Position numbers and translations under genes: made by a program. Below, piece by piece: positions 1-63,293 of a DNA stretch of 64,000 bases. The notes below the pieces were generated by a model. It saw only the letters and a program-made list of their open reading frames with translations, had not been told where the DNA came from and did no database searches. The stretch comes from a virus (Duplodnaviria; Heunggongvirae; Uroviricota; Caudoviricetes). The stretch lies in IMG/VR virus record IMGVR_UViG_3300028549_003773. One strand, written 5' to 3'. The first letter of the stretch is position 1; each line of letters opens with the position of its first letter.

Positions 1-115
1 TAGCAATTGCTAAGCTGTTTGCGGCCATTAAGAACGGCCAAGTGGCAGCACCCAAAGAAGTATCAACGAAGTAAATACAATTCAACGCCCCCGAAAGGGG
101 GCATAGGAGTAAGCC

Positions 116-517
116 ATGTACGAAAAAGAAATTGAAGCTCAGACCAAGAAAGTCGCAAACTATTTGGAGTTGCTTCAAATTGAAATGGAAAAATTAGCTG
201 CTTGGAAGTGTCAAGCAGCATTAGCATTCATAGCAACACAAAGCAACAGCAAACCTGCTCCTGTACAAGAGCAGACTGCAAAAATGACAAAAACCGTTTT
301 ATTTAAAAAGACAGGTTACACTGTTACTACAGAAAGCCGGAGGCGACAATTCTGTATAAAAATGAAGCTGCATATTAAAAAGGAGGATTTGTCATATGAA
401 GTAGTAAAAAGCCATGTGGTAATATTCGGGCAGAATTACAAAACGTTTGGGTGGTGTAATAAATTGTCAGACACCACAGTCTTTAACCTCTACAAATATT
501 GTAGAGATAACTATTAA
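116..517 (+). CDS. hypothetical protein
   Basis: 133-aa ORF on the + strand in the GC-richer block; RBS-like aggagtaagcc upstream of the ATG; no recognisable motif. Confidence 0.5.
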   Translation: MYEKEIEAQTKKVANYLELLQIEMEKLAAWKCQAALAFIATQSNSKPAPVQEQTAKMTKTVLFKKTGYTVTTESRRRQFCIKMKLHIKKEDLSYEVVKSHVVIFGQNYKTFGWCNKLSDTTVFNLYKYCRDNY

Positions 518-578
518 CTTCAGACTAGTGCCACCCGGCCTGTACTTATACTTGCAGGGTGGCGCTACCATTTTCAAA

Positions 579-600
579 TAGTGGTACAGTTTTTTTGAAG
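579..600 (+). promoter_or_regulatory. conserved intergenic motif TAGTGGTAC + T-run (instance 1), 58 bp upstream of the ORF at 658
   Basis: caaaTAGTGGTACagtttttttgaagg; same 9-mer plus T-run at 1352, 2554, 3902, 5581, 5674, 29377 and 35070, always + orientation and 45-90 bp upstream of a start codon. Confidence 0.4.
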
Positions 601-657
601 GAGTTGGTATTTTGCTGACTCTGTCATAATAAGGCCTAAGGCCGAAGGAGTTTCCAC

Positions 658-1323
658 ATGCAAACTTTTAAATTTGATAACGGGCAAAGGGGAAGTTTTC
701 GTCAAGTTACTGTATCTCCGGAAGGAGTATGCAGAGATGTAGTGAAAGTTATCCGTGGAGAGAAAAGAACAATCCAGGAAGCATTTACTGGTGACTTCCT
801 TTTCAAAGAAGGGAGAGTCTTGGAGACAGTGTCAATCATTTCCGAGAATGGAGTGCCTATTCGCATCTCCAACATTGTGAAAGAAGCGGAAGCTTGGCGC
901 TTTTGCCCGGCGGCATTGCAGCTCTGGCTCTCCGAAGGGAAAACTTCGTCACTGCCTGCAGGATATGGGTGGGATGGTGAGGTTACCAATAAAGAGGCGA
1001 GAAAAATCGCCGCAACACATAAATTCTTCCAGGGGCTTGAGGAGAAAGTGATTGAACAACTGGCGAAAATAGCCAAGTATTCACCTCGCTCAGGAATGCC
1101 CATGGATTGGGCCAAAGTAGGGCGAGATACGCTGCCATCGTCCATCTATATGGATGATGACCCATCCACATCATGGGTAGTGTGGACCTTTGACAACAAA
1201 GTGAAGTTGGTTAATAAGGTCAGCTCCACCAAAAACATTCGGGGCGCAGCTAAATTGCACCTCGGCGCATACAGAAACAGCAAGGGGACCTATGGAGTGA
1301 AGTGGGAACTCTTCCGTAAATAA
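658..1323 (+). CDS. hypothetical protein
   Basis: 221-aa ORF with RBS ggccgaaggag before the ATG; overlapping minus-strand ORFs of the track are treated as spurious. Confidence 0.6.
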   Translation: MQTFKFDNGQRGSFRQVTVSPEGVCRDVVKVIRGEKRTIQEAFTGDFLFKEGRVLETVSIISENGVPIRISNIVKEAEAWRFCPAALQLWLSEGKTSSLPAGYGWDGEVTNKEARKIAATHKFFQGLEEKVIEQLAKIAKYSPRSGMPMDWAKVGRDTLPSSIYMDDDPSTSWVVWTFDNKVKLVNKVSSTKNIRGAAKLHLGAYRNSKGTYGVKWELFRK

Positions 1324-1330
1324 AAAGTCG

Positions 1331-1369
1331 GTACCACTATGTCTGTATGAGTAGTGGTACTGATTTTTT
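1331..1369 (+). terminator. perfect 9-bp inverted repeat (GTACCACTA...TAGTGGTAC) followed by TTTTTT; terminator-like, or hairpin promoter (motif instance 2)
   Basis: gtaccactatgtctgtatgagtagtggtactgatttttt sits directly after the stop of the 658-1323 ORF and 50 bp before the next start. Confidence 0.5.
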
Positions 1370-1417
1370 GAAGCAATAACGCTTCTTAATTCAAAGCCGA
1401 AAGGCAAAGGGGATTCA

Positions 1418-1594
1418 TATGGCAATATCAGCTGAGAAAATAAAAACACTGCAAAGAAGAGTTGTTGATAAAATTTGGAAAAATAACTTTTTTGCAGTAG
1501 AAGTCATCGGATTTGCAATCCGCAAAGGCTACATCAAGTGCAATGATATTCTGACTGAGGAAGAGACAAAAGTATTTATGTGGAAAAAATAATT
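1418..1594 (+). CDS. small hypothetical protein (58 aa)
   Basis: ATG preceded by aaaggcaaagggga; absent from the track because it is under 60 aa; fills an otherwise empty gap. Confidence 0.4.
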
Positions 1595-1621
1595 CAACGC
1601 AGAAATGCAAAGGAGAAACAC

Positions 1622-1918
1622 ATGCAGATAACAGACAGTGACCTCGCATTATTAAAGGAACTGAAACCGAAAGAAGACGAACATATACTCTTGGAAGAAA
1701 CTATAGAAAAAGCCAAGAAAAAACTTAGCGTAGGAAAAACAGTAAGAATAATAGGTACCGGGTACACAGGTATCGTAAAGGGATTTAATGAGAGGCTTGG
1801 CGGATTTTATCCCGGAGTAAGATACCCGATATTCGTAAAAATTATTTACTCAAAAAATGAAAAATTCAAAGAAGCTGAAGGTCAGACATTCGAGTATGGT
1901 ATCGATCAATTAAAATAA
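1622..1918 (+). CDS. hypothetical protein
   Basis: track ORF 1580..1918 starts at GTG; the ATG at 1622 sits at the end of a 34-bp element identical to the one ending in the ATG of the next gene (1949), so 1622 is the likelier start. Confidence 0.55.
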   Translation: MQITDSDLALLKELKPKEDEHILLEETIEKAKKKLSVGKTVRIIGTGYTGIVKGFNERLGGFYPGVRYPIFVKIIYSKNEKFKEAEGQTFEYGIDQLK

Positions 1919-1948
1919 ATTCAACGCAGAAATGCAAAGGAGAAACAC

Positions 1949-2425
1949 ATGTGCAAAAAAAAACTTTTAAATCCTCCGGAAAATAATTACGCGTTTTGGG
2001 AAAACAAAGTAATGAGAAAACTGGGTAAAAAATATGAAAAATATACGTACAAAGAACTTGCTGAACTCTTTGGGAGAACAGTAGGAGCTATTAAAGCACG
2101 TTCCTGTGTATTAAGAATTATTGTGAGGATGGCTCCTTACGCAGATGAATTACTTCCAGTAATGAAATACAAATGCTCTGATTCAGCAAAAAGACGAATA
2201 AATACAGAAGAAGGTAGAAGAACTCATAGTAAAGCTGTAAAAATGGCGCAAAATCCTGAAGTAAAGATGAAAAGATCTGCTTCTTTTAAAGCACAGTTAA
2301 AAACTGAGCAAGGAAAAATAAATCTTGCAAAAGCACACAAAGCAGCGCAGACACAAGAAGCCAATGCTAAAAGAGCAGCAACTATGAAAGCCGTATGGGC
2401 AAAAAGAAAAGCTGATAATAAGTAG
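1949..2425 (+). CDS. HTH protein (sigma-70 region-4-like helix-turn-helix) with basic NUMOD3-like C-terminal repeats
   Basis: YTYKELAELFGRTVGAIKARSCVLR resembles sigma r4/LuxR-type HTH; C-terminus KRRINTEEGRRTHSKAVKMAQNPEVKMKRSASFKAQ is lysine/arginine-rich. Confidence 0.45.
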   Translation: MCKKKLLNPPENNYAFWENKVMRKLGKKYEKYTYKELAELFGRTVGAIKARSCVLRIIVRMAPYADELLPVMKYKCSDSAKRRINTEEGRRTHSKAVKMAQNPEVKMKRSASFKAQLKTEQGKINLAKAHKAAQTQEANAKRAATMKAVWAKRKADNK

Positions 2426-2553
2426 AGATAGCAGCACCCTGCCAAGTAGTTAACGGTGGGGTGCTGCTATCTTTTTTAACACCCTGTAGCTAACTTGGTA
2501 GTAAGTACGTGGGGTCGATTCATATGGGTGATTTGGTAGCGTGGAGGTGGGGG

Positions 2554-2575
2554 TAGTGGTACTGGTTTTTTGGAG
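2554..2575 (+). promoter_or_regulatory. TAGTGGTAC + T-run motif instance 3
   Basis: gggggTAGTGGTACtggttttttggag lies 50 bp upstream of the ATG at 2617. Confidence 0.4.
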
Positions 2576-2616
2576 TAGTGGAGATCCAAAGTTATTAATA
2601 ACAACAAAGGAGATGG

Positions 2617-2876
2617 ATATGAAAAAGTTTGTGAGATTGGCATTGTGTGTTATTGCAGAAGTAATAGTAATATTAGCAGTAGTTCAAACCTTCGCAGCCG
2701 AATTGAGCTACGAAGAAGTGAACTGCGACTGGAATGGAAGTACCCTTATTATACAAGTACCAATGCCAGCGCACTGGACTTGGGAAGATAAGGAAGTAGC
2801 CGCAGAAACAATCTGTGATTCAATTAAGGAGTATGAGGACCAGATTGAAATTTCAACCTGTGAGGAAGAGGAATGA
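2617..2876 (+). CDS. small secreted protein (signal peptide)
   Basis: MDMKKFVRLALCVIAEVIVILAVVQTFAAEL is an N-terminal hydrophobic signal; RBS aaggagatgg precedes the start; the track ORF began at an upstream non-ATG codon. Confidence 0.5.
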
Positions 2877-3071
2877 TTATGTTAATAACAGGAAACTTCC
2901 CATTGTATGATAGGGAAGGCATTCCTACAGGAAAGACGGAATTTGTGGTATCACATGGTATTGATTTAGATACAGGCATACCTGTGATACTACCTAATGA
3001 ACCACCATCTAAATTTCCAGGTGCGTTCTTCTCATTAGAAGCAAACGAGTGGCTTATGCCGGGAGAATAAT

Positions 3072-3899
3072 ATGAAATTTTGGACAGCATCATATGGGTA
3101 TCCAGGACCTTATAGACTGGATATAACTGTAAAAGGTCAAGACCCAATAGGTCGAATATTTGCGCCTACCTGGGGGATGGTGCTTGAATGGAAAGCCTCG
3201 GACAAAGGTCCAGAAGCGCAACAGAAATATATTGCAGAATATCATAAGCTGATGTTGGCAGTATTTGGATCCCAGGAATGGAAAGAGTTACTTTCACGGG
3301 ATTATGTCGTGCTTGTTTGTTTCTGCCCGGCGGAAGCATTTTGCCATAGACATCTACTGGCATATTACTTGAAACACTACGGTGCGACATACTGTGGTGA
3401 AATCGTGGACTTCGGGAAGCAAAAAGACATCCTGGAGTTCAAAGGAGACCATGCGTGGTTATCAAACTTTGCTCCATGTAAATTCACACACCTTGATGTT
3501 GAATATACATCAACTGAAGCGTTCTATCAAGCTTGGAAATTTGATGCAGTTGCTGTGATTCAAATAAAAGATGAAGACAATGACATAGTGTGGGTAAACG
3601 CTAGGGAGTATGTAGCTAAACAACCAGCTAACATAGCCAAGCGCTTAGGAAAAAAAGCAGACCTGTGTTGGAATTGGGACACAATACGCGTTGAAGTAAT
3701 GAAAGTTGCGCTTGAATATAAATTTATTCATAACTTACATTACAGAGCGTTGCTCAAAGCTACGGGCACCGCGAAACTTGTGGAAGGTAACTGGTGGCAC
3801 GATAACTTCTGGGGAGACTGTGGTTGCGCGAAGTGCATTGGAATCCCTGGAGCCAACACACTCGGCAAACTGATAATGGAGCTGAGGGGTGGCTTGTGA
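3072..3899 (+). CDS. DUF488-NADAR fusion protein (candidate ADP-ribose / ADP-ribosyl-DNA hydrolase)
   Basis: N-terminal half ends in VVLVCFCPAEAFCHRHLLAYYL, which matches the DUF488 CHR signature as I recall it; C-terminal half has FLSNF-type WLSNFAP...TSTEAFYQAWKF, resembling the NADAR/YbiA hallmark. Confidence 0.65.
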   Translation: MKFWTASYGYPGPYRLDITVKGQDPIGRIFAPTWGMVLEWKASDKGPEAQQKYIAEYHKLMLAVFGSQEWKELLSRDYVVLVCFCPAEAFCHRHLLAYYLKHYGATYCGEIVDFGKQKDILEFKGDHAWLSNFAPCKFTHLDVEYTSTEAFYQAWKFDAVAVIQIKDEDNDIVWVNAREYVAKQPANIAKRLGKKADLCWNWDTIRVEVMKVALEYKFIHNLHYRALLKATGTAKLVEGNWWHDNFWGDCGCAKCIGIPGANTLGKLIMELRGGL

Positions 3900-3901
3900 A
3901 A

Positions 3902-3931
3902 TAGTGGTACTGCTCCTTCGGGAGTAGTACC
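3902..3931 (+). promoter_or_regulatory. TAGTGGTAC motif instance 4 within an imperfect hairpin (ggtactgctcc ttcg ggagtagtacc)
   Basis: immediately after the stop of the NADAR gene and 46 bp before the ATG at 3958. Confidence 0.4.
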
Positions 3932-3957
3932 ATAACAAACTTAATAGGAGGTATAGT

Positions 3958-5370
3958 ATGAAACAGTTTATTGCCGTAACAGAAACCCTGGTGACGGGAT
4001 TGGAAGTTGTGACCCCACATTTGGCGTGGCTCCTGCGCTGCGCTATCATGGAACATGCAGGGAATGATAACGTGAATGTCATTTCATTCCACAACAAAAT
4101 ACCGAAGAAAGTTTTCGGTATGGCATACCCTGCGGTCAGAGGTATTGCCATCAACTTAGAAGAGCATGTGTATGCTGCTCTTGATAAGTGCATGAAAGAC
4201 GAAAACCGTAATGTGTCCTTAAGAGCATTACTATTGCACGAGCTTCTGGATACGGCTGTGCACGAAGCTGACCATCTCAAAAGTGCCGCAGAAACAGGCG
4301 ATTGGGATAGCACAGAGTTAAACGAAGAGAGAGCAAAGGCCGAAGCAAAGAGGAAGTCTTGGAAAGCTGCAAAGGAATGGGAAGTGGATTTAACCAGCTT
4401 CGGACCATACTTAGAAGCTGAGTTGGAAACCTTCATGACGGCTCTTAAAGAAGATGCCAAGACAAAAACTGACATGTGGAGAGACTTACAAATCTACATG
4501 TGGGATAAAAAATTGGGATACTACGACCCAAGTACAGGTGTAGAACTGGGCATACCTCAGACATTCGAAGCTCTGGCAAAAGATGAAGAGCCTTGGATGA
4601 AAGCGCCTGCAAAATTCATTTCTCAGCTCGGACCTGAAGTATCTGCAAGGCCAGTACCTCCTGCACCAGTTCAGACACCAGTTGTGGCTCCACCACCAGT
4701 ACCTGAAGAGGTTATTGCTCCTGTAGTAGAAGAAGCTTATCAGGATGCTGATAGTTTTATGAACTATTCAGATAATCCGTTTGATATCAAGGAGTATATG
4801 CCTCCTGCGCCAGTGGAAGCTGTTTCAAACCCACCTGAATTACCAGCACAAGTGGATGGGGAGTTCATGACATCAAGCAAAATCCTTGAAGTAGCTGAAA
4901 AAGTATTCAGGACTTTGTTCTGGCATGTGCAGACAAAATGTGAATTCACCACAGACGGTGGATATAACAATTCTGCAGCTGTACTTGAACCAGTGCGCAT
5001 TGACCACATCGAAGGCGCATTAAAGCTGTTCACTCATATGTGTACCTATGACCAAGTAGGTAAAGTATATGAAAACAATCAGCCGACGACGCATGGAATC
5101 AGAGGCATACTAACCAAAGAAGGTTTGCCATCTTACAAACTGTTCATGCGTATGAATGGAACACTGCATTACAGAACACTGCTTCCAGTCAATAACAATA
5201 AGGTAAAAGACGGTGCCTATACGAAATGGGCACAGGAAGCCAGAAATGGTGTTCGCAGAATGTTTATCTGTGAGGAAGATAAGGGAAAGGGTATTAAGGC
5301 ACATATAACCTTACCTGCTGGTCTACCCCTCGGCCAAGAAAAATTCGAAGTCTGGGGTACGAAGAAATGA
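3958..5370 (+). CDS. hypothetical protein with HExxH-like motif and Pro-rich linker
   Basis: 470-aa ORF; AVHEADHL (HExxH) near residue 100; PVPPAPVQTPVVAPPPVPEEVIAPV proline-rich spacer; otherwise unrecognised. Confidence 0.6.
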   Translation: MKQFIAVTETLVTGLEVVTPHLAWLLRCAIMEHAGNDNVNVISFHNKIPKKVFGMAYPAVRGIAINLEEHVYAALDKCMKDENRNVSLRALLLHELLDTAVHEADHLKSAAETGDWDSTELNEERAKAEAKRKSWKAAKEWEVDLTSFGPYLEAELETFMTALKEDAKTKTDMWRDLQIYMWDKKLGYYDPSTGVELGIPQTFEALAKDEEPWMKAPAKFISQLGPEVSARPVPPAPVQTPVVAPPPVPEEVIAPVVEEAYQDADSFMNYSDNPFDIKEYMPPAPVEAVSNPPELPAQVDGEFMTSSKILEVAEKVFRTLFWHVQTKCEFTTDGGYNNSAAVLEPVRIDHIEGALKLFTHMCTYDQVGKVYENNQPTTHGIRGILTKEGLPSYKLFMRMNGTLHYRTLLPVNNNKVKDGAYTKWAQEARNGVRRMFICEEDKGKGIKAHITLPAGLPLGQEKFEVWGTKK

Positions 5371-5580
5371 CAGTATCCACTGGATTTGTACTCAACAGAG
5401 AAACTATTATCACAAAATCTGGTTGTAAAATAGAGTACACCAGTGGGCTCAAAAAAGGGACTAAGATATGGATTCATTACAAAAAAGATGGGTCCATATC
5501 TTATGTCGAAGAGTACATGGAGGATACATATCAATGGTAGGGTTTAGGCCTGTGCAGGCTTGGTAGTCACTGCCGAGAAG

Positions 5581-5703
5581 TAGTGGTACCGTTCTGCGAT
5601 GGGTTGGTAGTAGCTCCTGCTCTCTTCCGCCTTGTGGAAGTGGAGTTGGGGTTGGAGCTGGAGACATGGAGAATAGTGGTACAGCTCTGTGATGGGTTTG
5701 TGG
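5581..5703 (+). promoter_or_regulatory. tandem duplicated TAGTGGTAC(C/A)G..TCTG.GATGGGTT.GT elements (instances 5 and 6)
   Basis: two ~35-bp related copies at 5581 and 5674, upstream of the ATG at 5751. Confidence 0.4.
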
Positions 5704-5750
5704 GTGTTCCCTTACTCATATTTAACTAAATCTTTATTAGGAGAAAACGT

Positions 5751-6686
5751 ATGAGCTCGATTGGAAAATTTGACGCGTCGGTTATGTGTGGTAGAGTGAA
5801 TAAAGTCAAAAACGCAGTAGCCGGTTTTGAGCATGCCGGTGTGTATTATCCTGGGTTCACGAAGCCGGACGGAAATGTCGTCCAAGCTCGATGGGAAGGC
5901 GTCATCTTCATTAACAATCTGCCTTTCACCGGCAAAGACGGAGTGAAGAAAGAGTCCAAGCCGCTGGCTATCAAAGTCACTGCCTGGAACAGCGCCAATT
6001 CAATACCAGGACACGGAATTGCTGACATCTGCGCCAAGTCGCTTTCACCGGGAAAAGAAGTCAGTTGTAAACTCACTGCTTCGTCCTACGAAAAACGCAT
6101 CTACGTGGACGGCATACCGCAAGTTGACCACAAGGGAAATCCCTTGTTCGACAAAAGCGCGGTGTCTTTCACCATGGACGGTCTGCCAATCTTTGGTAAT
6201 GACGCAGACGCGATAATCATGAATGAAATAAACGCTTTCCGCACCAACGGGATAGCTGTGACCTTCGGTGCACGTCCAATATTTTGGAACGTGATTGGTC
6301 ATGCTGACAATCTTGCTTGGCAGAAAATCAAAACTGACCGCAGAGATGCCATGTATGTACCTGGCCAAGCAATGTACGGTTACGCAAAAGTAATAGTCAA
6401 CAGCAATGCGGTACCTGCAGCGAACGCAAATGCAGCCTTGTTGCAGCAAATGGCAGCGATGCAAGCGCAACTTGCCGCTTTGAATCAAACTCCTGCAGCG
6501 CAGCCCACTCCGGTTGCTCCTCCTGTTGCACCAAATCCGACTACTCTCGGTATGGACCCGGTCATGCTTGCTCAGATGATGGAGATGATGAAAACCTTTA
6601 ACCAAACTCCGGTCGTTCCGCAAGCACCGGCTGCTGGCGCAACAACTACAGCTGCCGCCGGACTGTTGAACAACGTTCCGATCTAA
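5751..6686 (+). CDS. hypothetical protein with Q/A/P-rich low-complexity C-terminal tail
   Basis: 311-aa ORF with RBS ttaggagaaaacgt before the ATG; C-terminus LLQQMAAMQAQLAALNQTPAAQPTPVAPPVAP; possible OB-fold-like N-terminal region, not certain. Confidence 0.6.
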   Translation: MSSIGKFDASVMCGRVNKVKNAVAGFEHAGVYYPGFTKPDGNVVQARWEGVIFINNLPFTGKDGVKKESKPLAIKVTAWNSANSIPGHGIADICAKSLSPGKEVSCKLTASSYEKRIYVDGIPQVDHKGNPLFDKSAVSFTMDGLPIFGNDADAIIMNEINAFRTNGIAVTFGARPIFWNVIGHADNLAWQKIKTDRRDAMYVPGQAMYGYAKVIVNSNAVPAANANAALLQQMAAMQAQLAALNQTPAAQPTPVAPPVAPNPTTLGMDPVMLAQMMEMMKTFNQTPVVPQAPAAGATTTAAAGLLNNVPI

Positions 6687-7034
6687 GCTACATACACAGC
6701 CGAGCTGTTTAGCCTGTATGTAGAACAGAGTACCGTATCATCCATTATGGGTGGTACGGTACTTCTTTCTTTTTCAAATGGCTTCGCAGGGTAGGACAAC
6801 TGATGTTGCTGGCTATAGGCCTGGTACAGTTTTTTTTTACTCATGCATTAAATGGAGGGATACATGTCGTTAATCAGGGAATGCATTTCATATCACCGAC
6901 TTTTGGGCCTGGCTGCGCTAATTCAGTTACGGGTAATTTTGGGGTTTAGGAGAGGGATCCGCCGCTGAAATTGTCTCCAGACCGGCGATTAATTCATATC
7001 CAGAGATATTTACAGGTGAGTCTTTTGGGGGTGG

Positions 7035-7079
7035 TGTATAGATTAGTACTACTAATAAATATTAAACTAACCTATACAC
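7035..7079. terminator. 13-bp inverted repeat between convergent genes (bidirectional terminator candidate) at the GC-rich/AT-rich boundary
   Basis: gtgtatagattag ...21 nt... ctaacctatacac with one mismatch; lies between the + block ending at 6686 and the - gene ending at 7083. Confidence 0.45.
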
Positions 7080-7082
7080 GTT

Positions 7083-7745
7083 TTAATTTGTTATTTTTTC
7101 TGCTTCAATAATTTCCTTATCCCATGATGGAGGTGGGGTGGTGTTCTTATAAGTTTCTCTTACAACAAAAAATATTTTTAATAAATCTTCATTTAGAAGT
7201 CCATCTTTTTTTAAAGCGAGACATTGAAATTGATTGCCTATTTTTTTTATAAAATTATAAACTTTTTCTCTGGATATAGATTTAATTAAAATCTCATCTG
7301 AAGGTAAAGCAGATTCTTTTTGAATAAGCAAAGTTTCTAATTTAGATATTTTTAACATCAATTCTTCACTATCTTTCATGGATAAATTAACAATTTCATC
7401 TACTATTTTATTATGTTCTTCTATAGTAATATATTTAGTAGTATCTATAATAGTACCATTAGCTACCATTGGTACATCTAATGGTACTAACTTTTTTTGG
7501 GTACATGTACCCACTTTTTTAGTAGAATCAGACTGGGTACATGTACCCACTTTTTGTGCTCTTTTATATGATTGTCTCAATGTGTTGGCTTGTACAGTAG
7601 CACCATCATTAGTCTTGTTAAAATCTTCTGCTACTTTATCACAAGCTTTTCTAATTGACATACCATCTACTACTAATTTGGTAACAGCATCAAGAGCAGA
7701 TTCACCACAAATGTCTACATTAATTTTTACTTTACATTCACTCAT
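7083..7745 (-). CDS. HTH transcriptional regulator carrying in-frame copies of its own palindromic operator
   Basis: only minus-strand gene in the window; start moved to the ATG at 7745 (MSECKVKINV), preceded by AGGAGGT; region DAVTKLVVDGMSIRKACDKVAEDF looks HTH-like; KVGTCTQ x2 is encoded by palindrome copies at 7499 and 7535. Confidence 0.6.
   Translation of the reverse strand: MSECKVKINVDICGESALDAVTKLVVDGMSIRKACDKVAEDFNKTNDGATVQANTLRQSYKRAQKVGTCTQSDSTKKVGTCTQKKLVPLDVPMVANGTIIDTTKYITIEEHNKIVDEIVNLSMKDSEELMLKISKLETLLIQKESALPSDEILIKSISREKVYNFIKKIGNQFQCLALKKDGLLNEDLLKIFFVVRETYKNTTPPPSWDKEIIEAEKITN
7499..7548. repeat. two copies of the 14-bp perfect palindrome GGGTACATGTACCC (each followed by ACTTTT) inside the regulator coding sequence
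   Basis: exact palindromes at 7499-7512 and 7535-7548. Confidence 0.9.
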
Positions 7746-7768
7746 ATTACCTCCTATTAAAAAATACT

Positions 7769-7816
7769 GGGTACATGTACCCACTTTTATATATTGTAGT
7801 TGCTACATGTAGCAAC
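7769..7816. promoter_or_regulatory. operator-like palindromes in the divergent promoter region: GGGTACATGTACCC and GTTGCTACATGTAGCAAC
   Basis: perfect palindromes at 7769-7782 (25 bp upstream of the regulator ATG) and 7799-7816, between the - regulator and the + gene at 7875. Confidence 0.7.
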
Positions 7817-7874
7817 TTTTATAATATGTATTATACCACATTTAAACTGAAAGTCAACAAAAAAGGAGAAAAAA

Positions 7875-8099
7875 ATGTTCAATGCAATAACAGAAATAGT
7901 ACTAGTAATAATATGTACATCTTTCTTAATTTATAATTTTATAGGCTATTTTAAACTCGAACATAAACATAGGCTTTTTGAATTGACAATGCTGCTAACA
8001 ATAGCTGTACCTTGTGTACTTATTATACTGTACTCAGTGTATTATGTGATTTATTACATGTTCGAAATATTTAATATAAAAATAGTCATAGGATCTTAG
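7875..8099 (+). CDS. small membrane protein
   Basis: 74 aa with two hydrophobic helices; RBS aaaaggagaaaaaa before the ATG. Confidence 0.45.
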   Translation: MFNAITEIVLVIICTSFLIYNFIGYFKLEHKHRLFELTMLLTIAVPCVLIILYSVYYVIYYMFEIFNIKIVIGS

Positions 8100-8429
8100 A
8101 TGAAAACTAACAGTAATGATGAAATTTATAGAAGTGCATTAGATATATTTAAAGAAGTATACCTACCTTCATTTAAAAAAACTACATTAGAAAAAGAAAA
8201 AATCTTATTAGTACACCATCAAAGGCATGTAGAAACTTTTGCTTTTTTTGCAGTATTTAATGTGTTTTTTATCATAATTTTGGCTCTTGATAATGAAGAT
8301 TATCTATATTCAATACTGGTTGCTATGTTTTTCGCTTTATTCAGCCTGAAACATAACCTTTTAGCTGGACAGTACGAAAAGAGTATAGCTGAAAAGAAAG
8401 CTAAATTGCTTGATAGTCTTTATAGATAA
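8100..8429 (+). CDS. small membrane protein
   Basis: 109 aa with a central hydrophobic segment; start abuts the previous stop. Confidence 0.45.
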   Translation: MKTNSNDEIYRSALDIFKEVYLPSFKKTTLEKEKILLVHHQRHVETFAFFAVFNVFFIIILALDNEDYLYSILVAMFFALFSLKHNLLAGQYEKSIAEKKAKLLDSLYR

Positions 8430-8789
8430 CTATATACAGAACAAAAACAAACAAACTGTATCATAGTACTACTATTTTTATAACAAAAATTAAAAATCGC
8501 GCTATAAAATTAACATTTCTATAACAAAAATAAATTATTTTGATAAAGGAAATATATGATAGAAACAACATTACCAGGACTAGTACTAATGTTCTTAGTA
8601 GTATTCTGTATGTATATGGCCATAATGAATTTCATTATCTTTAAATTATTAGATAATCATCCAGATTCAAAAAAACCAAGAAGAAAATTAAATATAAAGA
8701 ATATGAAGGAAGATGGGCAATAGTTATTATAAGAATTGTACTACAGTACTATGGTTGGTGAATTGTACTACTATATTATTACTACTAAG

Positions 8790-8839
8790 GTTGGTACATG
8801 TACCAACTTTTAGGTATTGTACTGGGTACATGTAGCAAC
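8790..8839. promoter_or_regulatory. second operator cluster: GTTGGTACATGTACCAAC and hybrid GGGTACATGTAGCAAC
   Basis: 18-bp perfect palindrome at 8790-8807 and a hybrid of the two half-site types at 8824-8839, each followed by CTTTT; in a 700-bp gene-poor region. Confidence 0.7.
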
Positions 8840-8956
8840 TTTTAAAGTGTGGTACTTTATATTTTTTTGTTTGATTTTTTTATTGACAAAAAAGTGTGAC
8901 TATTATGCACCCATATATCGTAATTACATATTTTTTAGTAGTAATAATATAGTAGT

Positions 8957-9116
8957 ATAGTACAACAATTATAGTAGAAAAGCAGTACAACAATTATAGT
9001 AGAAAAGCAGTACAACAATTATAGTAGAAAAGCAGTACAACAATTATAGTAGAAAAGCAGTACAACAATTATAGTAGAAAAGCAGTACAACAATTATGGT
9101 AGAAAAGCAGTACAAA
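8957..9116. repeat. tandem direct repeats, 25-bp unit AGCAGTACAACAATTATAGTAGAAA x ~6 (iteron-like)
   Basis: exact head-to-tail copies read directly; last copy has one substitution (attatGgtag); array ends 28 bp before the RBS of the ORF at 9145. Confidence 0.9.
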
Positions 9117-9144
9117 AGAAAAAAATAAAAAGAGGAGTGATGCT

Positions 9145-9549
9145 ATGTTCACTACTAGTAAGTTATGTTCTATCTTTAACATTAAATTATGTAAGTTAAG
9201 GATGTGGTTGAATAATGACTACGTTAGGTATTCTGTTGGATCTCCTGGGCAAGGTATGAAGGGGTATTTTGATTATAAAGAACTTCTCATAGCCGCGCTT
9301 TTTATTTATTTAATAGATGAACTGGGTATGTGTAGAGATAATGCCAAAGTTATCACAGGGGATTTGCATTATTACCCGCGAGAATTTTTTGTAGTAGATA
9401 GTACTATATATTATAATAAAGAAGTAGGTATATGGAGTAACAAAACTGCTGTTCATATACCAAAAGAAAATAAAATTGTACTTACTATACCTTTTTATAT
9501 TATAATAAATAAGTACTTAAATGACTATAAGGAGCAATACTATGTCTGA
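9145..9549 (+). CDS. hypothetical protein
   Basis: 134-aa ORF with RBS aagaggagtgatgct before the ATG. Confidence 0.5.
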   Translation: MFTTSKLCSIFNIKLCKLRMWLNNDYVRYSVGSPGQGMKGYFDYKELLIAALFIYLIDELGMCRDNAKVITGDLHYYPREFFVVDSTIYYNKEVGIWSNKTAVHIPKENKIVLTIPFYIIINKYLNDYKEQYYV

Positions 9550-11390
9550 CAAAAGGGAAGTAGATAAATTAGAAGACAACATTAAGTACAAAGCTAAGAT
9601 GGAGATTTCATACTTTTGTAAAAAAGGAGCTCTACTTACTGGTAAATTTATTAAAAAAAATATACCTTTTGATGTATCTCACAGGCAAGGAATAGATGCT
9701 TTTTTCAAGAAGATCGTCAACTGCAAAAAATAAATAATAATAACAACATAGGAGCACAACAATGTCAATAGAAGCAATTATAAAGTTTAAAAAGCAAATT
9801 AGCAAGGTATTGCATGAAGCATCTACTAGCCTATCATACAACGGTTGTAATGATATACCAGATTCTTTTTGGGAGGGACTTACAGAAAAAGATAAATGTT
9901 TTCTTATTAATGAAGCTGTTATGGAAGGCTTAATAGATAAAGATTCTGGTACTTGGATTGCTGATTCTACTGTTGCTGAATTATTTTCTAAATGGTTTAA
10001 AGAGTTAGAGAGTGAATCTGATTCTGTTGAAAATTGGTTAAAACATTTTGATTATTAACTTTTAGCCTGCGCAAATAAAATATAAGGAGAATTATTATGC
10101 CTTTCGCAGATATTGCAATAGGAATATTGATTATATTTTGGTCACTGGGCATGCCTATGCTCATTTACTTGGATACAGACATTAGGGCAGTTATAAAAAA
10201 AATGAGTAGCACTGATCATTTGGCTATGTTTGGTGTTTATCTAATAGTTCCGATCATTTGGTCATGCGTGATATTTATTAAGTAGTAATACTATTAGCTT
10301 ATAACTATTAAATAATTAATTATGAGAGTATAATGACAACTTTTATATGTGTATTATTATTGTTTTTTCTTTTGAACATACCTTTGTCAGCAGCATTATT
10401 ACAGTACTGTAAGTATACCACTAATACTTTCATTAAGTTTATTTTTGTATTATTTTTTATAGGTATTCAATATTTAGCTTTTACAGTTTTTTCTGAAGCT
10501 TATTTAAAATATGTTCATTAACACTTTTCCAGCCAGCACAAATAAAATTAGTACAAAAGGAGCATGCATATGAACACACGTTCTGATACATATCTTAATG
10601 CTTGTGAAATTAAAAAGAGGTTTGGTGTTGCTGTTATACGTAAATGTTTATGTACTTCTATTAGACTTAATGATAGTTATTGGATTAAAGTTTATTCTAT
10701 TGCTTTAAATATTAGATAACATTCTGGTCGTTATTCCTCGCCCGCGCAAAAATTATAAGGAGAACTATTATGCTTCTACAAACTAAATACAACATAGGTG
10801 AAACTATAAAGTTTCATCCGTTTGGAAAAATGGGCCTTACAAAAACATATTGATCAGTTAGGTGATTTTTTAACCAGAGAAGAAGCTATGAAAATTGCTA
10901 TCACCGCCGGGCAAAAAGTTGATATAGAACGAGGTTGTGGTGGATTATCACACATGTTATTCAGTGAAGGACTTTATTAAAATAATACTTGAGAGGTGAA
11001 ATATGCTAATTTCTACAGCTACAAAAAATGAGCACACTAGAGGTAAGTACCCATGTTTAATGATAACTACTGATGGTTTAATAGTATTATTCTCAGACAA
11101 GGGAAAAGGTACAGTAGTGCATACAGAATCGAATACAAATTATATTTTAGGTACCTATGGTTCATATTGGTCCATGGAAGCATTTAAACCATATAGTGGA
11201 AGAGTAACTATAGAATAAATAGTAATTAATTAGTAGTAAATTACCATTAATTAGTAGTAGTAATATAAACCAGTTGTAAAGTACCATAATTCTGCATCAA
11301 AAATACTGTTGTTACACATAGTTACATACTTGTTACATAACTGTAAAAAATTGCATAGTAATAAACAAATATCTTAAAAAGGAATTTACA

Positions 11391-12062
11391 ATGAGTGAAA
11401 TTGATTTTTGCAATCGGCCTAGAAAAAGAAATATTGAGACATATAATGCTTCTTTAGTAACTTCAACTGGTGGTTGGTTTGGCTTGACTGCAAACAATGA
11501 TGAATGGCATTATGATACATACAAAAGAATTCTTAGAAAAGATTCACCTTTTGTAATAGTAGATAAAGATCCAGTAATAGTTAAAGGCATTAATGAACGT
11601 GCTAAAATAAGTCAGACAGATATTACAACACATTGTGGAGATCTTTTTGAAGTATTAAGATCATTAGAACGACCGGAAGTTAGAGTACCATTATTTACTT
11701 ATGGACATTTTGATTTTTGTTCAGCTGCATCATCCATGCAACATAATGCTAAATTAGAGCAACATATTTGGTGGCTCGCGCAATGGAATGACCTTAAAGA
11801 TACATTCTTCTTTGATATGACATTTTGTACGAGAAGGGATTTGTACAGAGGTTATGAAACCATTATGGACAAAACAATACCTCAAGCTTTTGGATCTTGT
11901 GGGTGGGATGTGTATAACCCAAAAACACCATATGCGATAAATGGTGGTATAAACCCACTTAAATTAACACAAGACCACGTATCTTTTATACGTAGATATG
12001 CAGACGGTAGTCCAATGGTAAATGCAATGTATAAAGTTGTAAGGAAATATAGCAATAAATAA
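11391..12062 (+). CDS. hypothetical protein
   Basis: 223-aa ORF with RBS aaaaggaatttaca before the ATG; no motif recognised. Confidence 0.55.
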   Translation: MSEIDFCNRPRKRNIETYNASLVTSTGGWFGLTANNDEWHYDTYKRILRKDSPFVIVDKDPVIVKGINERAKISQTDITTHCGDLFEVLRSLERPEVRVPLFTYGHFDFCSAASSMQHNAKLEQHIWWLAQWNDLKDTFFFDMTFCTRRDLYRGYETIMDKTIPQAFGSCGWDVYNPKTPYAINGGINPLKLTQDHVSFIRRYADGSPMVNAMYKVVRKYSNK

Positions 12063-20616: not shown

Positions 20617-21276
20617 ATGAAAAATATTATAAAAATAAGAGCTTTTGTTGCTATATGTGTAATTTTTGTATTATCGCTGGCTATGCTAAATACAGCAAAT
20701 GCTACAAATATCACAGTAGATTGGGATAAAGTTACAAATGTAACAACAACAAGTAAAGGTACATTAGGTACAACGGAGTTTGAATTAACAGTTGACTCTT
20801 CTGGAGTTTCTGTATATGGATACTGTATAGATCCATCACAAAGTATTAACAAAGGTAATTATGATTTTACTTTATCGTTATTGTCCGACCAAGGCGCAAA
20901 AGCTCCTCTATATTATAAAGCTGCTTGGCTATTGGATTCTTACGCCCCGGCTGGGAATGATGTGAGTAATAAAAAGGAAAAAAGCGCTGCAATACAAGGT
21001 GTACTCTGGACATTGTTAAATAACCCAGGGTATGCTTTGACAAATACAGGGTTAATAGGAAGCTATTTTAGCACTTATTGGGCAGCTGTGTCAGCAGTTA
21101 CTTTGAATTCATCAACAATTAATTATCTTAATACTCATTTTCTTGTTGCAAGAAACAGTAAAATACAAGATCTACTTGTATCTGATCCTAACCCAGTGCC
21201 TGAGCCAGCAACAATGCTTCTATTTGGTACCGGTATTTGTTTGTTATCGAGAATAAGAAGAAAAAATAGGAGTTAA
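20617..21276 (+). CDS. PEP-CTERM sorting-domain secreted protein
   Basis: N-terminal signal peptide; C-terminus PVPEPATMLLFGTGICLLSRIRRKNRS = PEP + TM helix + Arg-rich tail. Confidence 0.7.
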   Translation: MKNIIKIRAFVAICVIFVLSLAMLNTANATNITVDWDKVTNVTTTSKGTLGTTEFELTVDSSGVSVYGYCIDPSQSINKGNYDFTLSLLSDQGAKAPLYYKAAWLLDSYAPAGNDVSNKKEKSAAIQGVLWTLLNNPGYALTNTGLIGSYFSTYWAAVSAVTLNSSTINYLNTHFLVARNSKIQDLLVSDPNPVPEPATMLLFGTGICLLSRIRRKNRS

Positions 21277-21281
21277 ATAAT

Positions 21282-22067
21282 ATGCGATGGTTAAGTATTA
21301 TACTATTACTATTGTTATCTTTAGTATTTACTTTTGTAATTACTAAAGATAATAATGATGGTCTTCTATCAATAAGTGAACAGTCTACTGAAATTTCTGA
21401 TTTAAACATTAATGATTCACCTATAGATGTAGAACAGCTTGAAAGTATAGATAATAGTACAAGTAGTTATAACAATCGTTGGGTTGGGTTGTGTCCAAAA
21501 GATAGTATAAAATCAATTTACGATTTCAGGCAAACTGTAGAAAAAGACCCAACATTACAAAATCATTTTCAAGATTTCAAATGGGAAGAAGCGAAAATTA
21601 ATATTTTAAATAGTACAACTTACGCAAAAGTATCCCATAGATCTGGCTCTATAATAAAAGAAACAAAGAAAAGTATAACTTTACCTAAAGGAGATAAAAT
21701 TATAACTGATGGTAATAGAACAGTAAGATTTTTCTGTTGTAATGATGTTATTATACCAAAAGCTACATTGCCAGCTCCACCAAAGAAAATCAACAAGCCT
21801 ATGATAGCTGTGGAAATTCCAGAAAATAGCCTTGATGTAGTAAACGTAAATGCATATAATGACCAACCCTCCCTTAAAACATACTACAATTATCAACCAG
21901 AATATGTTTACAAAAGTCCAAGTAGTTTTATCGGTGGTAGTTCCTCTTCAGGGTTTTATCCTAAATTTTCACAGCCAACTGAGCCAACAGCAACACCAGA
22001 ACCATCAACATGGATGCTACTAGGAAGTGGTGCTCTATTGCTAAGATTTTTAAAGAAAAAATCCTAA
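21282..22067 (+). CDS. PEP-CTERM-like secreted protein
   Basis: N-terminal hydrophobic segment; C-terminus TATPEPSTWMLLGSGALLLRFLKKKS. Confidence 0.6.
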   Translation: MRWLSIILLLLLSLVFTFVITKDNNDGLLSISEQSTEISDLNINDSPIDVEQLESIDNSTSSYNNRWVGLCPKDSIKSIYDFRQTVEKDPTLQNHFQDFKWEEAKINILNSTTYAKVSHRSGSIIKETKKSITLPKGDKIITDGNRTVRFFCCNDVIIPKATLPAPPKKINKPMIAVEIPENSLDVVNVNAYNDQPSLKTYYNYQPEYVYKSPSSFIGGSSSSGFYPKFSQPTEPTATPEPSTWMLLGSGALLLRFLKKKS

Positions 22068-25137: not shown

Positions 25138-25175
25138 ATTTTATAACCAATAATTTGACAAGACTAAATAATACC

Positions 25176-26291
25176 ATGATTTTAAAAATAGAAAAACCGT
25201 GTAATATTTACGCAGAAGTAATTGAATCAGGCGCTTTAGATCAATTTAAAGACGTTATGTCTAAAGATTGGGTATTACGTGGTGCTCTCATGCCTGACGT
25301 TCATCAAGGATACACAATGCCTATAGGAGGTGTAGTTCAAACCTTAGGTATGATAAGCCCTGTTTTTGTGGGATATGATATTGGATGTGGAGTCTGCGCT
25401 CAACTTACCACCTTTAATAAAGAAGAGGTATTTCAACTACGATACAAGTTGAAAGAAAAACTATATAATAACATTCCAGTAGGTCAAAATCATCACAATC
25501 GACCACAAATTTGGAAAGAATATCACACAATTCCTAAAACAGATTGGTATAATAAAATGTTCTGGGAAGACAAAGGGTTACACCAATTAGGCACTCTTGG
25601 TTCTGGTAATCATTTTTTAGAAATAGCTTATGATGAAAAAGATCGTGTATGGGTTACAGTACATTCAGGTTCTCGTCATATAGGGCATTCAACAGCAAGT
25701 TATTATATCCGTTTGGCACATCCTCAAGGAACGTTAGCAGAAGGAGCATATGCTCTTGATGTAACTACTCAAGCAGGCAAGGATTACATTCTTGACCTTA
25801 ATGCCTCATTAGCTTTCGCCCTTGAAAATCGTAAACAAATAGTAACAGCCACAATAGCTACTATCAATCAATTTGTAAAAGGGGAATCAGCAGGAGAATT
25901 AATTAACAGGAATCATAACCACGCCGAATCAAAGGATGGCATTCATTGGATACATCGAAAAGGAGCAACTCATGCCGAAGAAGGTATGATTGGTGTAATT
26001 CCAGGTAATATGAGAGATGGATCTTTTATTGTTATGGGTAAAGGAAATCCAGATTCATTGTTCTCTTCATCCCATGGTGCAGGGAGAGTTTACTCAAGAA
26101 AGAAAGCAAAGACTTTGTTTACTGTAGAAGAAGTCGAGCTAGAGATGGGAGATATTGCTGCAAACATTAATGCTGGTATGCTTGATGAATCTCCTGGTTC
26201 TTATAAAAACATATTTGAAGTGATGGAATTACAGAAAGATTTGGTAGAAATAATTCATCACGTCAAACCTATCATTTGTATAAAAGGATAA
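25176..26291 (+). CDS. rtcB: RtcB-family RNA 3'-phosphate/2',3'-cyclic-phosphate ligase
   Basis: MPDVHQGY, GYDIGCGV, GSGNHFLEI, HSGSRHIGH, NRNHNHAE, HRKGAT and SSSHGAGRVYSR match RtcB active-site motifs; track start 25155 is TTG, first ATG is 25176. Confidence 0.8.
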   Translation: MILKIEKPCNIYAEVIESGALDQFKDVMSKDWVLRGALMPDVHQGYTMPIGGVVQTLGMISPVFVGYDIGCGVCAQLTTFNKEEVFQLRYKLKEKLYNNIPVGQNHHNRPQIWKEYHTIPKTDWYNKMFWEDKGLHQLGTLGSGNHFLEIAYDEKDRVWVTVHSGSRHIGHSTASYYIRLAHPQGTLAEGAYALDVTTQAGKDYILDLNASLAFALENRKQIVTATIATINQFVKGESAGELINRNHNHAESKDGIHWIHRKGATHAEEGMIGVIPGNMRDGSFIVMGKGNPDSLFSSSHGAGRVYSRKKAKTLFTVEEVELEMGDIAANINAGMLDESPGSYKNIFEVMELQKDLVEIIHHVKPIICIKG

Positions 26292-30147: not shown

Positions 30148-30861
30148 ATGTCTTTACATGTCTGTGGTGACACACATTGTCCTAGGGATATCCATAAATT
30201 GAATACCACAGAATGGCCAGAGCAAAGATCGCTAAATAAAAATGATATACTTGTTATATTAGGTGATTGTGGCTTGATATGGGATCCTGATTGGTCAAGA
30301 GAAGAATTGCATTGGGCTAATTGGCTTGCTAACAAAAAATTTACAGTTTGTTTTATTGATGGTAATCACGAAAATTTCGCAAGATTAAATAAATTTGGTA
30401 CAGTTCCTTTTTACGGAGGAACTGCAGGAGTTGTGTTTGAAAATGAAAATGGTGTAGTATATCATCTAAAAAGAGGAGAAGTATACACCATTGAAAACAA
30501 AACAATATTTACCTTCGGGGGTGCTCAATCCACTGATAAAGAACGTAGAATTATTGGACGTAGTTGGTGGCCTGAGGAAGTTCCAAACTTCGCAGAAATT
30601 AATCATGGATTAGAAAATCTAGAAAAACATCACAATTGTGTTGATTTTATATTAACACATACTGCACCAACAAGTATTATTACTCACTTTAATTTTATAG
30701 ACGCAGCTATGAGAATTGATGATCCTACTTCTAGATTTTTAGAAGAAGTGGATAAAATTACACAATTTAAACAGTGGCATTTCGGCCATTTCCACACCAG
30801 CCAGCATAAAGACATGAAATATATTTGTCATTATAACTGGTATCCCTATAAATTATTTTAA
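30148..30861 (+). CDS. calcineurin-like metallophosphoesterase
   Basis: GDCGLIWD (GDxxDRG-like) and CFIDGNHENF (GNHE) motifs. Confidence 0.7.
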   Translation: MSLHVCGDTHCPRDIHKLNTTEWPEQRSLNKNDILVILGDCGLIWDPDWSREELHWANWLANKKFTVCFIDGNHENFARLNKFGTVPFYGGTAGVVFENENGVVYHLKRGEVYTIENKTIFTFGGAQSTDKERRIIGRSWWPEEVPNFAEINHGLENLEKHHNCVDFILTHTAPTSIITHFNFIDAAMRIDDPTSRFLEEVDKITQFKQWHFGHFHTSQHKDMKYICHYNWYPYKLF

Positions 30862-63210: not shown

Positions 63211-63293
63211 GCAAGAGTGGTGGAAATGGCAATACACGAAGGTCTTAGAAGCCTTTGCTTAAATGATTGAGGGTTCGATTCCCTCCTCTTGTA
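63211..63293 (+). tRNA. tRNA-like gene (possible type-II tRNA, anticodon read as TAG/Leu but uncertain)
   Basis: canonical T-arm GAGGG-TTCGATT-CCCTC; 7-bp acceptor GCAAGAG/CTCTTGT with discriminator A; 3-bp D-stem GTG/CAC with a GG-containing loop; anticodon stem AAGGT/GCCTT with loop CTTAGAA; 13-nt variable region that does not fold cleanly. Confidence 0.45.

Follow-up and report, generated by a model that had tools for sequence, protein, structure and literature searches.

The 64,000-nucleotide stretch of DNA analyzed here (the window), taken from the Caudoviricetes record IMGVR_UViG_3300028549_003773, carries a gene for a 275-residue protein in which an N-terminal DUF488-N3a domain is fused to a C-terminal NADAR domain. 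Both domains are recognized by profile and confidently modeled, the fold of the NADAR half matches solved structures, its catalytic residues are intact, and the two-domain architecture and the gene order around it recur in related phage contigs. The protein is most likely a bifunctional ADP-ribose-processing enzyme with which the phage would undo a host NAD+-dependent defense. We put the probability that it is an eraser of ADP-ribose adducts used as counter-defense at about 0.5. Within that reading, DarT1 as the specific target is a tentative proposal, and reversal of DarT modification is only one of several readings of the gene.

The fusion gene and its two halves

A first-pass annotation, made from the letters alone, had proposed a gene at 3072..3899 on the plus strand. 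The open reading frame (ORF) is present at exactly this position and is 275 aa long, and its full-length homologous clusters exclude a chance ORF. Conservation was read from three alignments, of 40 fusion proteins (A1), of 84 N-domain sequences (A2) and of 33 multi-domain DUF488-N3a representatives (A3). The features of the gene are the following:

3061..3065, plus strand: GGGAG, a putative ribosome-binding site read directly from the letters, 6 nt before the fusion-gene ATG
3072..3899, plus strand: complete DUF488-N3a-NADAR fusion gene, from the ORF list and the sequence; ATG start, TGA stop at 3897-3899, 275 aa
3072..3416, plus strand: DUF488-N3a domain, residues 1-115, modeled with a strand-loop-helix arrangement resembling that of rhodanese-phosphatases
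3318..3350, plus strand: predicted active-site loop C83-F-C85-PAEAF-C91-H92-R93, reaching from where strand 78-83 ends to where helix 92-102 starts
3447..3890, plus strand: NADAR domain, residues 126-273, from PF08719, phrog_1017, PDB sequence matches and Foldseek
3510..3539, plus strand: NADAR motif S147-T-E149-AFYQAW-K156, with E149 and K156 invariant in A1
3540..3629, plus strand: lineage-variable insert, residues 157-186, a beta-hairpin in the model (strands 162-166 and 172-176)
3777..3815, plus strand: NADAR motif L-V-E238-GNWWH-D244-NF-W247-G, from the HMMER alignment to 8bau and 2b3w; invariant columns in A1
3819..3836, plus strand: cysteine triad C250-x-C252-xx-C255 directly after the catalytic motif; invariant in A1

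The gene abuts a 65-aa upstream ORF, whose stop is at 3068-3070, with the fusion ATG 2 nt later. The protein database contains an identical protein (P0001) and 39 other full-length clusters at 42-69% identity (E from 2e-58 to 2e-128), all of them, P0001 included, already annotated there with PF22751 and PF08719. Alignment A1 has 47 invariant columns, which cover both halves. Given the full-length homologous clusters and these invariant columns over both halves, we conclude that both gene and fusion are genuine, conserved and subject to selection. PHROGs splits the protein in the same way, with phrog_2450 and phrog_22076 on the N-terminal half and phrog_1017 (E=4.8e-32) on the C-terminal half; a PADLOC scan returned weak matches only, to candidate-system models. 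The signatures from which the first-pass annotation had named the two halves are all present, namely CFCPAEAFCHR at residues 83-93, which ends in the C91-H92-R93 that it had associated with DUF488, and the NADAR/YbiA hallmarks WLSNF at 129-133 and EAFYQAWKF at 149-157. The full-length AlphaFold2 model, from a 40-sequence alignment, has a mean predicted local distance difference test (pLDDT) score of 94.6 and a predicted template modeling (pTM) score of 0.64.

The C-terminal half scores 64.8 bits against PF08719, for which the cut-off is 35.1 (E=1.4e-17; profile positions 9-160 of 163). A Foldseek search of the full model against the PDB retrieved E. coli YbiA (2b3w; E=9.4e-10, TM score 0.70 on the target) and 8bau (E=1.2e-6), which is the P. 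nicotianae NADAR with ADP-ribose, and a PDB sequence search found the same two entries. With the residue roles of PMC11543638, E149 and K156 correspond to E43 and K50 of the P. nicotianae NADAR and to E88 and K95 of the E. coli C7 NADAR, E238 corresponds to the YbiA-type catalytic Glu (E125 in P. nicotianae), and D244 and W247 correspond to D130 and W133. HMMER shifts the first of the two NADAR motifs by a few residues, and the register of E149 and K156 was corrected by eye on the Y-x-S-x-E...K pattern. All five residues are invariant across the 40 homologues, and the catalytic Glu/Lys/Glu set is intact.

The NADAR half shows two peculiarities. The insert at residues 157-186 occurs in about 40% of the fusion family (A1) and is absent from the others. 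In our alignments, YbiA, 8bau and the NADAR of phage Bas33 lack the cysteine triad. Of the 89 NADAR ORFs in the fetched loci, viral and related (among L012-L091), 87 have the extended motif WHDN[F/Y]WG-x-C-x-C-xx-C; this count is biased by the selection of these loci on the pattern WHDN[FY]WG, for which about 250 viral loci were found. From these alignments the triad appears to mark a viral NADAR clade; that it forms a metal-binding knuckle is only a guess. In isolated phages, relatives were found for the NADAR half only, and T5-like phages were the most numerous top matches.

Two narrower NADAR profiles of NCBIfam stay below their cut-offs. The score is 54.5 bits against 240 for NF053876 (the DS32_2 NADAR anti-phage protein) and 66.4 bits against 73.7 for TIGR02464 (the YbiA-type riboflavin-intermediate N-glycosidase). 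The second score, the Glu at the position equivalent to E125 and the rank of YbiA as best PDB match would suit a metabolite-repair N-glycosidase that acts on riboflavin-pathway intermediates and has no role in phage-host conflict. However, the score falls under the cut-off, the family is found in viral and metagenomic contigs and one contig of a metagenome-assembled genome (MAG), no riboflavin genes lie nearby, and YbiA itself hydrolyzes guanosine-ADP-ribose too (PMC11125620). We therefore regard a role in metabolite repair as very improbable.

The N-terminal half scores 36 bits against PF22751 (DUF488-N3a), above the cut-off of 27 (E=9.6e-9, residues 30-103). This match covers profile positions 42-117 of 118 only; the full 115 residues align with 83 stand-alone members, clusters of about 110-130 aa that were found by a word-indexed search. 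The generic DUF488 profile, PF04343, gives 19.4 bits against a cut-off of 22.2. Because PF22751 is above and PF04343 just below the cut-off, we assign the domain to the divergent N3a subclade rather than to core DUF488. Hence, of the two Pfam families that the first-pass annotation had named for a profile search, NADAR stands as proposed, and generic DUF488 is replaced by its subclade.

Residues C83, C85, C91, H92 and R93 are invariant in all three alignments (40, 84 and 33 sequences), and L16, D17, I18, T19 and Y53 are invariant too across the 84 sequences of A2. In a model of the N domain alone (pLDDT 97.4, pTM 0.89), strand 78-83 ends with C83, C85-C91 lie in the loop that follows, and H92-R93 form the N-terminus of helix 92-102. 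As modeled, this strand-loop-helix arrangement would correspond to the active-site geometry of rhodaneses and Cys-phosphatases, and the loop is predicted to be catalytic. Comparison of the N domain with other proteins gave figures of 4.8 for PTEN, 4.8 for the RapZ C-terminal domain, 4-5 for tetrapyrrole/diphthine methylases and 3.3-3.7 for dual-specificity phosphatases. RapZ is also the third Foldseek match of the full model (E=0.15).

It could also be that the NADAR half alone is catalytic and that DUF488-N3a is a non-enzymatic nucleic-acid-binding, targeting or regulatory module. It would then be an analogue of the N-terminal extension of DarT1-linked NADARs and give the hydrolase access to its substrate. 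In DarT1-associated NADARs this extension lies beside the active site; these NADARs also have a conserved lysine whose requirement is confined to in vivo conditions (PMC11543638). The pTM of 0.64, despite the pLDDT of 94.6, is compatible with two independently packed, loosely coupled domains. Against such a role, the Cys/His/Arg loop together with D17, T19 and Y53 is invariant over 84 diverged, mostly stand-alone sequences, as is typical of active sites, and Pfam labels DUF488-N3a the 'active DUF488-N3 subclade', apart from the 'inactive' DUF488-N3i. A purely accessory N domain is in our view improbable.

Partner domains and a candidate role in counter-defense

With a threshold of E<=1e-3, an exhaustive profile search for DUF488-N3a returned 4,964 representatives; at E<=1e-10 the number is 1,565. 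Among the top 150, roughly two in three are stand-alone, and the remaining multi-domain representatives considered here (33 within the top 150) were scanned with Pfam. NADAR is the partner in 10 and Macro in 4. SLOG-type families account for six matches (YAcAr 2, DNA_processg_A 2, YpsA 1, LDcluster4 1), where a single protein may match several of these families; further partners are DUF5131 (2), HD (1) and ASCH (1). P0091 joins N3a to Macro (2fg1, E=6.6e-14), P0043 joins it to a SLOG-like domain, and P0069 and P0103 have the reverse order, with a divergent NADAR-like domain N-terminal to N3a (hhalign probability 83%). On L058, a 255-kb viral contig of a jumbo phage, a triad-type NADAR and a stand-alone N3a are separate genes 400 nt apart. 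The recurrence of DUF488-N3a with NADAR, Macro and SLOG points to the processing of ADP-ribose derivatives in general.

The fusion family was located in viral and metagenomic contigs, plus one 2.3-kb contig binned to an alphaproteobacterial MAG. The scan of bacterial and archaeal genomes gave this kind of result only once, as one short fusion-like MAG contig, and otherwise separate NADAR or DUF488-N3a genes. Neighbor-joining trees group the 44 fusion-derived NADAR domains in one clade, but bootstrap support is weak, with only 14 of 40 replicates recovering it; a single origin of the fusion is thus no more than suggested. Our literature search found no paper that names DUF488 together with NADAR.

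Two further candidate associations were rejected. A 158-aa ORF downstream of a stand-alone DUF488-N3a gene (L009), considered as a NADAR, proved on testing not to be one. The NADARs of the Salvovirus genomes, Clavibacter phage 33 and Xanthomonas phage Seregon, were considered as fused or adjacent to DUF488, as their tblastn matches seemed to start at residue 76; Pfam places a weak Sulfotransfer_4/P-loop-like gene upstream and a kinase plus nucleotidyltransferase gene downstream. These two loci (L010, 3097-4270, in Clavibacter phage 33; L011, 3112-4288, in Xanthomonas phage Seregon) hold a stand-alone NADAR followed by a P-loop kinase plus cytidylyltransferase-like protein. The latter has a NadR-like architecture and links NADAR to NAD salvage in these phages; all of these genes are annotated 'hypothetical' or 'kinase'.

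In the mechanism that we favor, NADAR would be an N-glycohydrolase that releases ADP-ribose from a nucleobase. Its best-documented substrate is guanine-N2-ADP-ribose, put on phage DNA by DarT1-type toxins, and cytosine- or RNA-linked forms are possible. Every NADAR subtype assayed hydrolyzes guanosine-ADP-ribose in vitro, in DNA (PMC11125620). NADARs also remove ADP-ribose from RNA guanosine (PMC11833690), and certain NADARs, including the YbiA type, act on cytidine-linked ADP-ribose (PMC12945103). The earlier statement that NADARs reverse the guanine ADP-ribosylation laid down by DarT is correct for DarT1, and phage NADARs are proven anti-DarTG1 factors (PMC11543638, PMC11257639). An anti-DarT1 role of the present gene is plausible on sequence grounds. 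DUF488-N3a, as a presumed cysteine-dependent member of the rhodanese-phosphatase superfamily, would probably take a second step on a phosphate or sugar-phosphate, be it on the same ADP-ribose moiety, on the released product or on a nucleic-acid end. We infer the substrate, the coupling of the two steps, the timing of expression and the counter-defense role, and entirely so the phosphate-directed step, which is the most likely one for this domain.

The two domains could be complementary, because NADARs cannot remove phosphate-linked ADP-ribose (PMC11833690). Taken further, DUF488-N3a might be a cysteine phosphoesterase that works with NADAR to undo a modification, placed by the host on nucleic acid or nucleotides, that is beyond the reach of NADAR alone, for example a phosphorylated or phosphate-linked ADP-ribose adduct. 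We consider this stronger form unlikely. If it were true, the fusion would mark an undiscovered NAD+-dependent host defense and a new two-step counter-defense chemistry, and the CxCxxC triad might act as a metal site that tunes the choice of substrate.

The partner domains also bear on a reading in which the enzyme acts on soluble molecules derived from NAD+ or ADP-ribose, destroying diffusible immune signals or toxic metabolites. Candidate targets include isomers of cyclic ADP-ribose and phosphates of ADP-ribose, on which NADAR would break the N-glycosidic bond and DUF488-N3a would take off the ribose-linked phosphate. Iyer et al. predicted this for phage NADAR, Macro, SLOG and DUF4326 (PMC9503650, PMC7824862). 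The partners of DUF488-N3a found here are the same NADAR/Macro/SLOG triad, and one stand-alone DUF488-N3a gene lies in a large phage contig that also carries NUDIX and YpsA (SLOG) genes. In the papers considered, however, NADAR activities are all on base-linked ADP-ribose in nucleic acids, no NADAR is known to hydrolyze a signaling nucleotide, and the phage NADARs assayed counter DarTG1 (PMC11257639). Action on soluble targets is possible but, on this balance, doubtful.

Several points weigh against our preferred reading of the protein as an adduct eraser in counter-defense. In one study neither the T4 NADAR nor YbiA saved cells from DarT1, although both were active in vitro (PMC11125620), so activity is no guarantee of counter-defense. 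Stand-alone NADARs suffice against DarTG1, and the fusion for that reason hints at another or an extra chemistry or substrate. Iyer et al. held that most phage NADARs target soluble ADP-ribose derivatives and not macromolecular adducts (PMC9503650). An N3a gene lies within 6 kb at only one of the 77 stand-alone viral NADAR loci (that on L058), which argues that the pairing of N3a with NADAR is specific rather than general. Searches of isolated phages and of bacterial and archaeal genomes did not lead to a host or a phage group, and a DarT1 in that host is hypothetical. ADP-ribosyltransferase (ART), Nudix, sirtuin and NAD-synthesis domains were not detected among the window ORFs scanned, which were the neighbor genes (seven of them <150 aa), every plus-strand ORF of >=150 aa and the non-overlapped minus-strand ORF 7083-7784; the neighbors in related loci gave no ART match either. 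Finally, both the counter-defense use of this protein and the chemistry of DUF488-N3a are predictions.

Genomic setting

The fusion gene lies in a GC-richer block, as had been noted at first reading. GC content is 0.39-0.49 over 1-7000 and about 0.31 elsewhere, and GC at third codon positions (GC3) is 0.23-0.51 as compared with 0.15-0.23. The TAGTGGTAC motif noticed in the block is indeed enriched in the window (31 sites at <=1 mismatch against 11.6 expected), with seven of the nine exact copies in the first 5.7 kb. The suggestion built on these two observations, that the gene belongs to an acquired accessory module, is not supported: the GC-richer block, the downstream gene order and exact TAGTGGTAC are all conserved in related phage contigs. 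The features of the block are these:

579, 1352, 2554, 3902, 5581 and 5674, plus strand; 1331, minus strand; and 29377 and 35070: exact copies of the TAGTGGTAC 9-mer in the window
3904..3933, plus strand: 13-bp RNA hairpin with a UUCG loop, 5 nt after the fusion stop (-22.7 kcal/mol; z = -7.06 against shuffles)
3958-5370: 470-aa downstream neighbor with an HEAxH (HExxH-like) motif and a Pro/Ala-rich linker
5751-6686: 311-aa downstream neighbor with a low-complexity Ala/Pro/Gln C-terminal part

In four relatives GC drops likewise, right after the ~310-aa gene in L002 and L012 and about 1-2 kb on in L004 and L006; this conserved compositional step is a feature of the phage lineage. Exact TAGTGGTAC is present in 9-10 copies each in L002, L004 and L012, at conserved intergenic positions, and in one copy in L006. 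Frequently it forms the 3' arm of a hairpin (GTACCACT...TTCG...TAGTGGTAC) with a GTTTTTTGAAGG-like T-run after it; in an alternative context, GGGGA(T/A)GGGG repeats stand in front of it. The related contigs keep the exact 9-mer though their fusion proteins are only 46-59% identical to that of the window, and for this reason we regard it as a regulatory element that is conserved and sequence-specific and that may serve a phage RNA polymerase as terminator or promoter. The fusion gene is bracketed by the TAGTGGTAC copy at 2554 on one side and by the hairpin and motif at 3902-3933 on the other, where the 5' arm of the hairpin overlaps the copy at 3902-3910. This hairpin probably marks the end of the gene's expression unit, with a putative role in termination or processing.

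Three long related contigs share a gene order of the fusion, in some cases a ~180-210-aa ORF, a 420-485-aa protein, in some cases a small ORF, and a ~310-346-aa protein, after which come a variable stretch and then a reverse-strand gene. Related contigs preserve the synteny of the fusion gene with both the 470-aa and the 311-aa gene of the window. The L004 counterpart of the 470-aa protein has 36% identity with it, and the HEAxH motif is conserved in both. The small upstream ORF is not conserved. Because the GC step, the gene order and TAGTGGTAC are conserved in related contigs, the block appears to be inherited and specially punctuated, with no recent acquisition, and the fusion gene would belong to it by vertical inheritance, as one gene of a conserved block with its own punctuation in this phage lineage.

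Neither PDB sequence searches nor family searches gave a match for the 470-aa and 311-aa neighbors, and Pfam and PHROGs scans of ten neighbor genes gave nothing useful, with no family match for the immediate neighbors. The window as a whole is phage-like, with almost all genes on one strand, and further profile matches in it include a helicase, RuvB and an HNH endonuclease. Against isolated phages, megablast of positions 1-12000 found no match, and tblastn found none for the RNA-polymerase-like, 470-aa and 311-aa proteins. At the boundary of the GC drop, in and around the reverse-strand gene 7083-7784, the palindrome TGGGTACATGTACCCA occurs in three copies (7498, 7534 and 7768; regions 7464-7549 and 7768-7783), each followed by a T-run.

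Farther from the fusion gene, the window encodes an RNA-repair-like gene set:

25155-26291: RtcB ligase (profile match)
30148-30861: calcineurin-like metallophosphoesterase (profile match)
32840-34171: CCA-adding tRNA nucleotidyltransferase (profile match)
63211-63293: tRNA-Leu gene

These genes raise the idea of RNA repair or de-modification, in which the fusion protein cleans ADP-ribosylated or phosphate-bearing RNA (tRNA or mRNA hit by host toxins) before the phage RtcB ligase and CCA-adding enzyme restore it. Besides the presence of RtcB, the CCA-adding enzyme and the metallophosphoesterase in the same genome, NADARs act on RNA guanosine (PMC11833690), links between them and RNA-repair systems have been noted (PMC9503650), and at locus L007 a stand-alone DUF488-N3a gene lies about 3 kb from RtcB. 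In the window, by contrast, the RNA-repair genes are 21-29 kb from the fusion gene, in the other compositional block, and the conserved neighbors of the fusion gene are unrelated proteins with no family match. Moreover, RtcB ligation leaves no 2'-phosphate, and hence no ADP-ribose by-product that would need removal. A function in RNA repair seems to us quite unlikely.

Three other observations concern the rest of the window. Amidoligase-type genes are unusually concentrated (39399-40310, 50669-51772, 57633-58931, 40339-41121, 41972-42652, 55784-57640 and 58936-60003): there are three COOH-NH2 ligases of phiEco32-like type, two Peptidase_C26/GATase-I proteins, a single class-II glutamine amidotransferase and one RimK-like ATP-grasp protein, which suggests a peptide or amide modification pathway. 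The adjacent ORFs 20617-21276 and 21282-22067, one with a weak thioester-domain match, end in PEP-CTERM sorting motifs; these are unexpected in a phage and may point to a host that has an exosortase system. A 1087-aa protein (45074-48337) with weak matches to phage RNA polymerase beta families (phrog_3295, E=7.7e-7; phrog_2987, E=3.2e-4) may be a divergent phage multisubunit-type RNA polymerase.

Comparison with known systems

Much of the ground is already known. Phage NADARs have been recognized as anti-DarTG1 factors since 2024, and computational work of 2021-2022 described fusions, in DNA viruses, of NADAR, Macro or SLOG to small domains of the rhodanese-phosphatase clade. PF22751 is an existing curated family, and 40 clusters of the present architecture are already annotated in the database. 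If only the NADAR half mattered, the gene would be a routine addition to the list of AdfN-like counter-defense proteins. On the reading that we prefer, it would extend a proven phage theme, the erasure of DarT1-type DNA ADP-ribosylation, to an uncultured lineage that, by nucleotide sequence and by three proteins searched, has no match among sequenced isolates, and here NADAR is physically tied to a domain of predicted chemistry. The compact 275-aa fusion offers an entry point to the function of the DUF488-N3a family, which has thousands of members, and its biochemistry could show whether ADP-ribose erasure by phages is a two-step process.

By sequence, the closest tested relative appears to be the Bas32/Bas33 NADAR (bas33_0070 of Escherichia phage HildyBeyeler), which has 37% identity with the NADAR half along its entire length (E=2e-22) and shares with it the E-x6-K and L(V/I)EGN-W-D-xWG motifs. 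The NADARs of Bas32/33 and of Bas60, which are unrelated to each other and not of the T4 type, neutralize DarT1 and rescue phages from DarTG1 (LeRoux and colleagues, PMC11257639). Unlike the protein described here, the Bas33 NADAR is a stand-alone protein of 149 aa and has no DUF488-N3a domain, CxCxxC triad or 157-186 insert.

AdfN (T4 gp30.3), the first phage anti-DarTG1 NADAR, clears guanine ADP-ribose in DNA and belongs to the same superfamily but to a different clade. It is a single-domain protein; our protein scores 17.4 bits against PF08010 (Phage_30_3), whose cut-off is 36, and has Glu238 where NADARs of the gp30.3 type have His at the position equivalent to E125 (PMC11543638). The best matches of solved structure, YbiA (2b3w) and the P. 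nicotianae NADAR (8bau), have the catalytic Glu and the ADP-ribose-contacting residues in common with it, whereas they are cellular, single-domain proteins with no cysteine triad.

The DarT1-linked NADARs of the DarG1 type (E. coli C7 and G. lovleyi 8bat) are members of the same superfamily with the same proposed hydrolysis of guanine-N2-ADP-ribose. They are distinguished by Asp171 two residues before the conserved Glu, by a specific Lys115 and by an adjoining DarT1 (PMC11543638). In contrast, the window protein has Leu236 at the -2 position, no ART was detected nearby, and no sequence match to 8bat was found at E<=1.

In design, a close counterpart is found in the DUF4326 fusions of jumbo phages and giant viruses described by Iyer, Burroughs, Aravind and co-workers. 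The N domain described here matches PF22751 (DUF488-N3a) and not PF14216 (DUF4326), and the functions of both are known from prediction alone. The sister DUF4326 clade, with its NADAR, Macro and SLOG partners, is predicted to act on the terminal phosphates of ribose in ADP-ribose or in its breakdown products (PMC9503650, PMC7824862). Like the present protein, these fusions join a small Cys-loop domain, in their case one of the RapZ-C/DUF488/DUF4326 assemblage in the rhodanese-phosphatase clade, to an ADP-ribose-processing domain, and the partner set of NADAR, Macro and SLOG is identical for DUF4326 in the literature and for DUF488-N3a in our analysis.

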